From Escherichia coli (GTDB taxonomy: Bacteria; Pseudomonadota; Gammaproteobacteria; Enterobacterales; Enterobacteriaceae): a DNA stretch of 64,000 nucleotides. Shown in pieces: positions 27,617 to 45,275 of this stretch (the stretch's first letter is position 1; every line of letters starts with the position of its first letter). The position numbers were made by a program, and so were the translations under genes. The stretch lies in assembly GCF_016026235.1 (NCBI RefSeq), contig NZ_CP065613.1; one strand, given 5' to 3'. The notes beneath the pieces are model-generated. The model did no database searches, was not told the DNA's origin, and was given only the letters and a program-made list of their open reading frames with translations.

Positions 27617-30849
<3,233 letters not shown>

Positions 30850-31100
30850 TTAACCAATTCTGTGTTGCACACAGTTATCTGTGAGAAACCCATGGAAGAG
30901 AAATGGAAATAAAAAGAACTGACACCGCGATCAAAAAACCAAAAACTGCAATACCCACAGCGTGATATTGATCGCATTAATCTTTAAAACGGCGTTGACA
31001 GAAGCCATAAAATAAGCAACCGAACGTTCGTTCGAGCATATTGGGAACGATAAACTCTCATGACATATGGCTACGGTGAATATTTTTGGGGGGAATTCTC

Positions 31101-32394
31101 CTGAGGGATCCCCAGAAAATTTAGTAAACCATTATCATATTGGTATACCGTTGCTGTAGAACTTTCAGCCCTGCGTCAAGTGACAGTGTGTTTAGTATGA
31201 GTGGAGAATGTCGAATCACATTCTCCGCCAGTTTTAATAACGAGATGACTCGCCTGTGCTTCACTGTATTTGCCTGATATTTATGATGTATCCCTTTGTT
31301 TTCCAGGCTGAAACCGCTTAACCACATAATGATACTGGCTAATGTTGCGATCAGACTCAATACCGTGACCCGCCCGGATGAATGACTGGCACCAAACCGT
31401 AGTCCAAATCCCCAGCGAGGATTTTTTTCATCCCTGAAATTTTGCTCAATTTGCATTCTACGGCTGTATAATTTCATTACCTGTTTTGGCGAGAACTCAG
31501 TACTGTTTGTGAAAATAAACCATGGTGATTTCCCGGCAGTACGAGCTTTAGCCGTCACCGATGGTCTGGTTGCTCTTTCCTTCGAGCGTTTAAATCTACG
31601 ACCTTTAGGCTTACTTTTATAAAGATAAAAATGCCCTTCATGTTGTGCATTTTTATCTCGACCCAGCAGGCCTTCACCTAAATAAATTGCTGTCGTTGAT
31701 GCTTTTGTGCCTGAGTCCGACACCTTTTCCCAGCCATTACCAACATTGTAATAATGATTGCCCAGTACCCGGCAAATATAGGTCCAGCCACGGGAGCGGA
31801 GCTGTTGGAACCATCGCCCCTGAAAACCGGCATCTGTAATAACAATGACATCAGTCCCGGGGGAAAAGCACTCAGCAAGCGATTCCAGAAAACGCTCATG
31901 TACATCTGCATTCGCTGTCTGTGATGATGGAACGACACAACTCATCAACGGTAAAGAACGCCCGTCACATGCCAGGCTTGCCCGCAAAAGCTGAAAACGA
32001 GAGGCATGATAAGCACTCCAGTCAATGAGTATCACAACACGAGACATTCCCCGCGTAATCTTTTGGGTAATTCGCTGAAAAATGGTGGAAACCTCATTTT
32101 GCAAATGTCGATTCCCCAACAGTCGATCCACCCGCTTTATTTTGTTTTTAACTGATGCCGTACCGGTTAAATGACGCCCGATACTGGTAAGTGTGAGGGA
32201 AGCGCCATTTATTACAGCATTAGTTGCGTCAATCAGTGATTTTTGACGGTAAAGATGCAAAGGGGCCAGTATGTTGTTAAGGAAATTTTGGCATAATGAA
32301 CGTGCAGGCATAGTGGTGATCTCCTTGAAATTGTTAGCACAATCAATTAGATCACATCTCACTATGCCTGTCTTGTTTTCTGGGGATTCCTCAG
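31101..32394 (-). mobile_element. IS10-like insertion sequence (IS4 family) inserted between uidR and uidA
   Basis: Left end CTGAGGGATCCCCAGAAAAT and the reverse complement of the right end CTGAGGAATCCCCAGAAAAC form an 18/20 imperfect inverted repeat resembling IS10 termini (CTGA-N3-ATCCCC); the element is flanked by a direct repeat GGGAATTCTC (31091-31100 and 32395-32404); it carries a single DDE transposase gene; length ~1294 bp. Confidence 0.85.
31121..32311 (-). CDS. IS4-family (IS10-group) DDE transposase
   Basis: ORF 31121..32362; alignment by eye to IS10 transposase shows conserved blocks KIKRVDRLLGNRH, IDWS (D), TDAGF (D) and YSRRMQIEQNFRDEK (Y-2-R-3-E-6-K signature); the likely start is the internal ATG (MPARS...) preceded by GGAG, giving 396 aa, which aligns with the IS10 Tnp start. 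Confidence 0.85.
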   Translation of the reverse strand: MPARSLCQNFLNNILAPLHLYRQKSLIDATNAVINGASLTLTSIGRHLTGTASVKNKIKRVDRLLGNRHLQNEVSTIFQRITQKITRGMSRVVILIDWSAYHASRFQLLRASLACDGRSLPLMSCVVPSSQTANADVHERFLESLAECFSPGTDVIVITDAGFQGRWFQQLRSRGWTYICRVLGNHYYNVGNGWEKVSDSGTKASTTAIYLGEGLLGRDKNAQHEGHFYLYKSKPKGRRFKRSKERATRPSVTAKARTAGKSPWFIFTNSTEFSPKQVMKLYSRRMQIEQNFRDEKNPRWGFGLRFGASHSSGRVTVLSLIATLASIIMWLSGFSLENKGIHHKYQANTVKHRRVISLLKLAENVIRHSPLILNTLSLDAGLKVLQQRYTNMIMVY

Positions 32395-32489
32395 GGGAAT
32401 TCTCCGATCCCGGCTAGATTGTATTTTGTACAGGGAAATTAAAGTATGAAACGCGGGCACAGTTATCACCAGCCCGCGAAATGAGAGGA

Positions 32490-33080
32490 TCAGGATGCGG
32501 TTAAGATACCGCCAATCATCGCGCGTAATCCCTGAGCAAACGACGCTTCACGCGCCAGATCTTCCGCTTCGATATCGGCCAGTACACCGTAGGTCAGATC
32601 CAGCAGTAAACGTGAAGTCATTGACGTGTTGATGTCTGGGCTTATCTCGCCTTTTTGCTGGGCATCACGCATCCGCTCGGCAACAAATTCAGTGATCGTC
32701 ATATGCTTATTTTTAAGCATGGCGGCGACCTGTGGGTTACGCATCCCTTCCGCCATAATTTCGACCACCAGCGCCCGTTGCCCAAAGGCTTCATGGGTGA
32801 GAGAGACAATAGACTCGACCATATAGTCAACAAAATGAATCCCTTCAATCGGTTCCCGGAAACGGGCCAGCGCCCTCTCCTGGTCCTGTAAGATAATCGC
32901 CTGAATCAAGGCTTCTTTGGAGATGAAATGGTGATAGAGCGTCCCGGGACTAATGGCGCAGGATTTACAGATGGCTTTCATCGAGGCACTGTGAAATCCA
33001 TTTTCTGAAAAAATCTCTCTGGCAGCATTGAGGATCCGGGTCCGTGTCGGTTGTGCTTCAGTCTGCATGTTATCCATCAT
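32490..33080 (-). CDS. uidR: TetR-family repressor of the glucuronide operon
   Basis: 196-aa ORF with N-terminal TetR HTH; upstream of and in the same orientation as uidA. Confidence 0.9.
   Translation of the reverse strand: MMDNMQTEAQPTRTRILNAAREIFSENGFHSASMKAICKSCAISPGTLYHHFISKEALIQAIILQDQERALARFREPIEGIHFVDYMVESIVSLTHEAFGQRALVVEIMAEGMRNPQVAAMLKNKHMTITEFVAERMRDAQQKGEISPDINTSMTSRLLLDLTYGVLADIEAEDLAREASFAQGLRAMIGGILTAS

Positions 33081-42386: not shown

Positions 42387-45275
<2,889 letters not shown>

Follow-up and report, generated by a model that had tools for sequence, protein, structure and literature searches.

Dam methylation limits transcription of the transposase genes of the insertion sequences IS10 and IS50 by acting on promoter elements (PMC4265352; for IS10 also PMC9296519), and in IS10 the Dam site overlaps the -10 element of the transposase promoter pIN (Ellis et al. 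2015, PMC5006887). The IS10 antisense RNA, RNA-OUT, is 69 nt long, is complementary to RNA-IN over its first 35 nt and ends at nt 47 (Ellis et al. 2015, PMC5006887). A survey of the IS4 family covers the IS10 subgroup with no mention of GATC, Dam or antisense RNA (PMC2266710). Here we analyse ISEc60, a complete IS4-family element of the IS10 subgroup that lies on the minus strand at positions 31101-32394 (1,294 bp) of a 64,000-nt stretch of the Escherichia coli contig NZ_CP065613.1, called the window in the following. Homology with IS10, together with conservation among relatives, indicates that ISEc60 is probably under the hemimethylation-dependent control known from IS10. For IS10 itself, Roberts et al. 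are said to have shown in 1985 that Dam couples transposition to replication.

Results

IS10, for which we took the reference sequence from plasmid R27, contains two GATCs only (at 67 and 1320), whereas ISEc60 contains five, at 42, 74, 267, 1043 and 1285 in coding orientation. Because five GATCs per 1,294 bp equal the background rate of the 64-kb window (250, or one per 256 bp; 208 were expected from shuffles, so the tetramer is slightly enriched there and not depleted), the count is uninformative and only the positions carry information. A preliminary description of the window had noted a GATC in the left inverted repeat of the element, at the end distal to the transposase start, which is the inside end. 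This site (31107-31110) indeed occupies bp 7-10 from the terminus (GGGATCCCC), a position equal to that of the IS10 GATC at 1320-1323, and belongs to a 19-bp inverted repeat (CTGAGGGATCCCCAGAAAA, 31101-31119, plus strand). Of these 19 positions, 18 are equal in the outside-end repeat (CTGAGGAATCCCCAGAAAA, 32376-32394, minus strand). The sole difference is position 7, G at the inside and A at the outside end, so that the outside end reads AATC at bp 7-10 and is without a Dam site. IS10 shows the same combination, its inside end having GATC at bp 7-10 where its outside end has AATC, and the 13-bp terminal cores of the two elements are nearly identical (inside, CTGAGGGATCCCC in ISEc60 and CTGAGAGATCCCC in IS10; outside, CTGAGGAATCCCC in ISEc60 and CTGATGAATCCCC in IS10). 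Since the inside-end GATC lies at least 11 nt past the stop codon (31121-31123), coding constraint does not explain its conservation. That is, ISEc60 carries a GATC in the transposase-binding part of its inside end and none in its outside end, at the positions found in IS10.

The second position shared with IS10 is upstream of the transposase gene. A GATC had been reported about 40 bp before the ATG; it is located at 32350-32353, 42 nt upstream of the A of the start codon (32311, minus strand), within TGATCTAAT. The IS10 counterpart lies 41 nt upstream, within TGATCAAAT. In both elements the GATC is part of a -10 region of the pattern TGATC(T/A)AAT, and all four columns of this promoter GATC were invariant when ISEc60 and IS10 were aligned with MAFFT together with two relatives that are 85% and 82% identical. 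Placed by homology, pIN would comprise the -35 element AAGACA (32369-32374, minus strand), a 17-bp spacer and TCTAAT with a TG before it (32374-32346 as a whole, minus strand). Its predicted extended -10, TGATCTAAT (32346-32354, minus strand), aligns with TGATCAAAT of IS10 and includes the GATC; a transcript start near 32339 is predicted, likewise from IS10. The AGACA of the predicted -35 element is kept across Enterobacterales lineages. For the outward-reading promoter pOUT, we predict an extended -10 TGGCATAAT (32289-32297, plus strand), which aligns with the IS10 pOUT -10 region (TAAAAT), and a transcript start at 32304. This outward -10 element lies within codons 5-7 in ISEc60 as in IS10 and has the same offset from the ATG in both, despite different encoded amino acids.

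The alignment to the IS10 ends thus placed both IS10 Dam sites at homologous positions of ISEc60. GATC is a common tetramer, and one might fall near an end and another near a start codon by coincidence, all the more as the number of GATCs in ISEc60 is no higher than the background. But the two positions equal those of the only two GATCs of IS10 within 1 nt, and the sites persist in 35-40 of the 42 lineages described below, down to 34-36% protein identity. This effectively refutes coincidence, to which we give next to no credence.

To survey the relatives of ISEc60, we used a protein search, which returned hundreds of them (identity to ISEc60 from 91% down to 52% among the top 120 listed), and an alignment-driven scan of species-representative genomes, which yielded 80 loci. 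Element ends were found by inverted-repeat matching in which GATC was not used, and were then re-anchored; TCCCC occurs in target sites too. The resulting 67 elements were collapsed to 42 lineages at 90% nucleotide identity. We left 18 of the 80 loci out of the counts, as end detection had failed or was impossible: no repeat was found at L014, L028, L031, L034, L057 and L060, matches were spurious at L008, L050, L063, L069, L079 and L085, L051, L054 and L073 were lost at re-anchoring, and others were on truncated contigs.

At bp 7-10, GATC is confined to the inside end in 35 of the 42 lineages. It occurs at both ends in three lineages (Dryocola L082, a gammaproteobacterial metagenome-assembled genome, L070, and Legionella anisa L068) and at neither end in two (Citrobacter L036 and L. 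pneumophila L066), and in two Oceanimonas lineages the pattern is reversed, with GATC at the outside end only. Altogether, the inside end carries GATC in 38 of 42 lineages and G at position 7 in 40, while the outside end is without GATC in 37 and has A at position 7 in 32. Three different sequences, AATC, GTTC and GCTC, avoid GATC at the outside end. When the two ends of each element were compared, position 7 differed in 30 of the 42 lineages, versus 0-2 for positions 9-13. The outside end tolerates changes at positions 7 and 8, which makes transposase binding alone an unlikely reason for the constancy of the inside end.

The promoter motif is persistent as well: TGATCTA(A/C)T was found in 40 of 42 lineages, mostly 39-45 nt upstream of the ATG and 49-61 nt upstream in three, and only the Oceanimonas lineages are without it. 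In the Dryocola boscaweniae element (L082), an 18-nt expansion of repeated CAACAAATTCAA-type units between the promoter GATC and the ATG moves this GATC to 58 nt upstream of the start codon. Elsewhere in the elements GATC is scarce. Across the bodies of the 42 lineages (including 31114-32308 of the window) we counted 55 GATCs versus 177 expected, a depletion of about 3-fold that is measured against a first-order expectation only and in lineages that are not independent; there it is on a par with CTAG, and eight other palindromic tetramers rank above it.

Two groups depart from the common arrangement. The Oceanimonas elements (L053, L055 and L058, from O. baumannii and O. sp. CHS3-5) have GATC at the outside and GCTC at the inside end, and read TTTTCTCTTT where TGATCTA is expected, so that they have no promoter GATC; in them the Dam-site arrangement seems to have been naturally rewired. 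The two Legionella elements have symmetric ends, AATC/AATC in L066 (L. pneumophila subsp. fraseri) and GATC/GATC in L068 (L. anisa), and keep TGATCTAAT 41-43 nt before the ATG. Legionella hosts presumably fall outside the Dam/SeqA/MutH clade, and the symmetric ends of these two elements, the only ones available, are consistent with an asymmetry that relaxes outside the Dam clade.

The survey also bears on the possibility that both GATCs are kept for reasons other than Dam, with methylation having little or no regulatory effect in ISEc60. TGATCTAAT would then be kept as a -10 element and hairpin arm, and GGGATCCCC as an ancestral transposase-binding core. The retention of the motif in the Legionella elements speaks for this explanation, as do the several lineages with GATC at both ends or at neither. 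However, if G7 and A8 were needed for binding, the outside end should keep them too, and it has AATC, GTTC or GCTC instead. The inside end keeps its GATC almost throughout and the asymmetry runs in one direction except in Oceanimonas, while the roughly 3-fold depletion elsewhere fits GATC as a sequence that is functionally 'visible'. Finally, the same two sites are experimentally Dam-sensitive in IS10 (PMC5006887, PMC4265352), as Roberts et al. reportedly found in 1985 too. Taken together, we regard the explanation without Dam as unlikely, though it deserves more weight than any other alternative considered here.

The promoter GATC is also part of a predicted RNA structure, a point that again favours reasons other than Dam, since the motif lies inside a covarying hairpin. 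The strand reading outward from the element (32304-32385) folds with a minimum free energy of -31.6 kcal/mol (z = -5.7), compared with -23.9 kcal/mol (z = -5.1) for IS10 RNA-OUT. Its predicted RNA-OUT-like antisense hairpin (32304-32374, plus strand) coincides with a sub-threshold match to the Rfam family RF00240 (RNA-OUT; model positions 1-70, 16.8 bits, E = 7.7). As this score is far below the gathering threshold, we rejected the hairpin as a member of RF00240: it resembles RNA-OUT in location, strand, length and overall stem-loop, whereas its sequence has diverged, with structure and position conserved. In 34 lineages, 91.7% of the cells of the basal 11-pair stem are paired, versus 24-52% when partners are slid against each other. 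Compensatory changes were observed in 10 of the 11 basal pairs, and none of 500 shuffles reached the observed values. G-U pairs outnumber A-C mismatches on the outward strand, favouring the RNA-OUT strand as the one that folds. That is, a stable and covarying outward-strand stem-loop of the RNA-OUT type spans the ribosome-binding site and the ATG. In the sense orientation, the AUG sits in the 3' arm of this helix, and the 5' arm with which it pairs precedes the predicted pIN start, so that the AUG would be occluded only in read-through transcripts from outside the element. Such occlusion fits the pattern of fold-back inhibition that Davis, Simons and Kleckner reportedly described for IS10 in 1985.

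A third GATC, which had been placed in the ribosome-binding region, was found there as well: it lies at 32318-32321, 10 nt upstream of the ATG, and overlaps the 3' edge of the Shine-Dalgarno sequence AAGGAG (32321-32326; both on the minus strand as read, 32318-32326 together). The proposal that the IS10 Dam arrangement is conserved holds for the inside-end GATC and the GATC in the pIN -10 element; it does not extend to this third site, which is no feature of IS10 and is also missing from the 85% and 82% identical relatives and from the Photorhabdus/Xenorhabdus clade. An idiosyncrasy of ISEc60 was rejected too, since about 17 lineages have a GATC in this place, 10 nt ahead of the ATG and without exception 30-32 bp away from the promoter GATC. 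When each lineage was folded, every one of these GATCs paired with the promoter GATC, and at that place lineages without it had either GAUU, which forms a G.U wobble as it does in IS10, or a bulge. Because GATC is palindromic and its partner is the promoter GATC, perfect pairing of the hairpin produces the third site as a consequence. Most likely, therefore, the ribosome-binding GATC is the hairpin partner of the promoter GATC and not a third Dam switch.

The constant spacing would also suit a different role. Hemimethylated GATCs are bound by SeqA when they come as a pair on much the same helix face (PMC2691817), and 30-32 bp, or about three helical turns, put the two sites of these 17 or so lineages on roughly the same face. 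As a functional third Dam site, the ribosome-binding GATC would form a SeqA-binding pair with the promoter GATC when hemimethylated and would alter the duration of promoter hemimethylation, an effect that would add to IS10-type control and not exclude it. Against this stand the absence of the site from IS10 and from the relatives named above, and the fact that the site is fully accounted for by the hairpin, in which it pairs perfectly with a palindromic tetramer. We consider a SeqA pair very unlikely.

The remaining features place ISEc60 among IS10 relatives. Its single open reading frame is a 396-amino-acid transposase gene (ATG at 32311 to stop at 31121, 31121-32311, minus strand) with DDE and YREK motifs, which scored 360.5 bits against NF033591 (IS4-family transposase; cut-off 152) and 74 bits against PF01609 (cut-off 23). 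The residues of the Y-(2)-R-(3)-E-(6)-K signature (PMC2266710), Y282, R285, E289 and K296, are invariant in our alignment A2, which includes IS10. With 1,294 bp and CTGAGG at the start of both ends, the element falls within the 1200-1350 bp and the 5'-CT termini of the IS10 subgroup, while its direct repeats measure 10 bp in place of the 9 bp listed for that subgroup (PMC2266710, Table 1). No stop codon interrupts the transposase frame between the ATG and a GTG further upstream, at 32362 (32312-32362, minus strand). Gene callers have produced 557-680-amino-acid 'fusions' (P0001-P0008) in which flanking genes (aldA, ydbC and others) are joined to the ISEc60 transposase; these are probably annotation artefacts, with read-through translation conceivable.

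The element was inserted between uidA (28987-30798, minus strand) and uidR (32490-33080, minus strand), both of which are 100% identical to those of E. coli genomes. Its boundaries are set by the empty uidA-uidR site of E. coli E2865, which reads ...TTTTTGGGGGGAATTCTCCGATCCCGG...: GGGAATTCTC is present once there and twice in the window, as a target-site duplication at 31091-31100 (left copy) and 32395-32404 (right copy). Identical (100%) full-length copies were found in 14 complete E. coli genomes, on chromosomes and plasmids and with a maximum of 38-39 per genome, where they are annotated as 'IS4-like element ISEc60 family transposase'. Given CTGAG...CTCAG termini, a duplication of 10 bp was found for the window copy and six other ISEc60 copies. 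Since every target has the form G|N10|C, the boundaries of the duplication can be shifted by 1 nt.

The 10-bp duplications of the window and of L090, L091, L093, L095 and L096 are flanked by G and C, so that the target reads G|G-N8-C|C and is quasi-palindromic. Two copies without duplications (L092 and L094) are probably recombinant, and two others (L088 and L089) form a tandem ISEc60 pair with 10 bp between them. In a further E. coli genome (L087; GCA_031665585.1, JARKNL010000002.1, 768030-769620), ISEc60 sits at the very uidA-uidR target used in the window, with GGGAATTCTC duplicated there too, but in the orientation opposite to that of 31091-32404 of the window, which points to a hot-spot that was hit independently, or to an inversion; the complete genomes RMDEC364, RMDEC332 and FDAARGOS_943 share the orientation seen in the window. 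FDAARGOS_943, a 38-copy genome, also has, next to ampH, an ISEc60 copy that is itself split by an IS5-family element (L006, 2454225-2459436), and this nested insertion lies 80 bp from the ISEc60 outside end.

Elsewhere in the window, a 96-bp tandem repeat (6.4 copies, 92% identity, 44613-45226) has units that each begin with GATC. It lies inside a 772-amino-acid open reading frame (42957-45275, plus strand), is unrelated to the ISEc60 GATCs, and is probably the repeat region of rsxC.

Discussion

If ISEc60 follows IS10, the two GATCs at homologous positions would act together. The promoter GATC overlaps the extended -10 (TGATCTAAT) of what would be a weak transposase promoter, and the inside-end GATC would lie in the repeat needed for transposase recognition; the outside end, with AATC, could not be methylated. 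E. coli is Dam+ (the dam gene lies outside the window), and in such a host full methylation would hold both pIN and the inside end at low activity. Passage of a replication fork, or conjugal entry with a newly synthesised strand, would leave both sites briefly hemimethylated. Transposase synthesis and inside-end activity would then rise together, and transposition would be limited to DNA that has just been replicated. The hairpin would in addition provide an RNA-OUT-like antisense RNA for multicopy inhibition and might occlude the AUG in read-through transcripts.

Several observations weigh against this picture. The asymmetry of the ends is broken in seven of the 42 lineages (three with GATC at both ends, two with none and the two reversed Oceanimonas lineages). 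In Legionella, TGATCTAAT is kept together with symmetric ends, so the motif may be retained partly for the promoter and hairpin and not for methylation. The hairpin, with 16.8 bits and E = 7.7, did not reach the gathering threshold of RF00240, which is 41 bits. A generic scan for sigma-70 promoters and terminators called neither pIN nor pOUT, both of which deviate from the consensus at -10 position 2, and the promoter assignment thus rests on homology with IS10. For ISEc60 itself, a catalogued element, our literature search returned mentions in two survey papers only and no study of its regulation. As for the inside end of IS10, Roberts et al. (1985, Cell 43:117) reportedly observed that methylation has an effect and that the two hemimethylated forms differ in activity. 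With these points taken into account, we still hold IS10-type control of ISEc60 to be probable.

A broader claim would be that the Dam switch is no peculiarity of IS10 and that selection maintains it as an ancient trait throughout the IS10 subgroup in Dam+ gammaproteobacteria. GATC would be kept at the inside end and in the pIN -10, lost from the outside end through several independent substitutions and depleted in the rest of the element, and the claim would also encompass a possible SeqA pair and the rewiring in Oceanimonas. Within that claim, the second GATC of the control region (present in ISEc60 and in about 40% of lineages) could attract SeqA and adjust the time that the promoter spends in the hemimethylated state. 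We think so extended a reading distinctly unlikely. The survey does, in itself, provide comparative evidence that selection maintains the two Dam sites of IS10 across the whole subgroup.

The question is of some practical weight, as ISEc60 is actively expanding, with up to 38-39 copies on the chromosomes and large plasmids of some enteroinvasive or clinical E. coli. Should the rules of IS10 hold, ISEc60 movement would be tied to replication and conjugal transfer, its copy number would be self-limited by antisense RNA, and its activity would rise sharply in dam-deficient or Dam-limited cells.

Among known systems, IS50 (Tn5) and IS903 share with ISEc60 the principle that methylation of a promoter GATC limits transposase expression to just after replication (PMC4265352, PMC9296519). 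They belong to another subgroup or family, have unrelated ends and are without an RNA-OUT-type antisense hairpin, and their resemblance to ISEc60 is functional and no positional homology. In IS50, inside-end GATC sites are also involved, as Yin, Krebs and Reznikoff are said to have reported in 1988.

IS10 is far closer. Judged by sequence comparison, ISEc60 is a diverged but true homologue of IS10 that appears to have kept the whole IS10 control region, even though the transposases are just 36% identical over 375 amino acids. Both belong to the IS10 subgroup of the IS4 family with its 'CT' ends, and beyond the Dam sites and promoters they share an antisense hairpin of about 70 nt that begins 5 nt 3' of the ATG. 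They differ in length (1,329 bp in IS10, 1,294 bp in ISEc60), in a 24-bp segment between terminal core and promoter that appears as an alignment gap in ISEc60 and presumably contains the IHF site of IS10, and in the duplication, which is 10 bp in ISEc60, not 9 bp. Moreover, the ISEc60 hairpin is followed by a U-rich tract at about 32374-32384, in which a predicted outward transcript of about 70-80 nt would end, and ISEc60 has the second GATC at the ribosome-binding site that IS10 is without. Dam dependence has been demonstrated for IS10, whereas ISEc60 is known here from sequence comparison. The layout of ISEc60 is the known IS10 arrangement and is mechanistically no departure from it; what the comparison adds is modest, namely the conservation of this arrangement across the subgroup, the directional asymmetry of the ends and the depletion of GATC between them.

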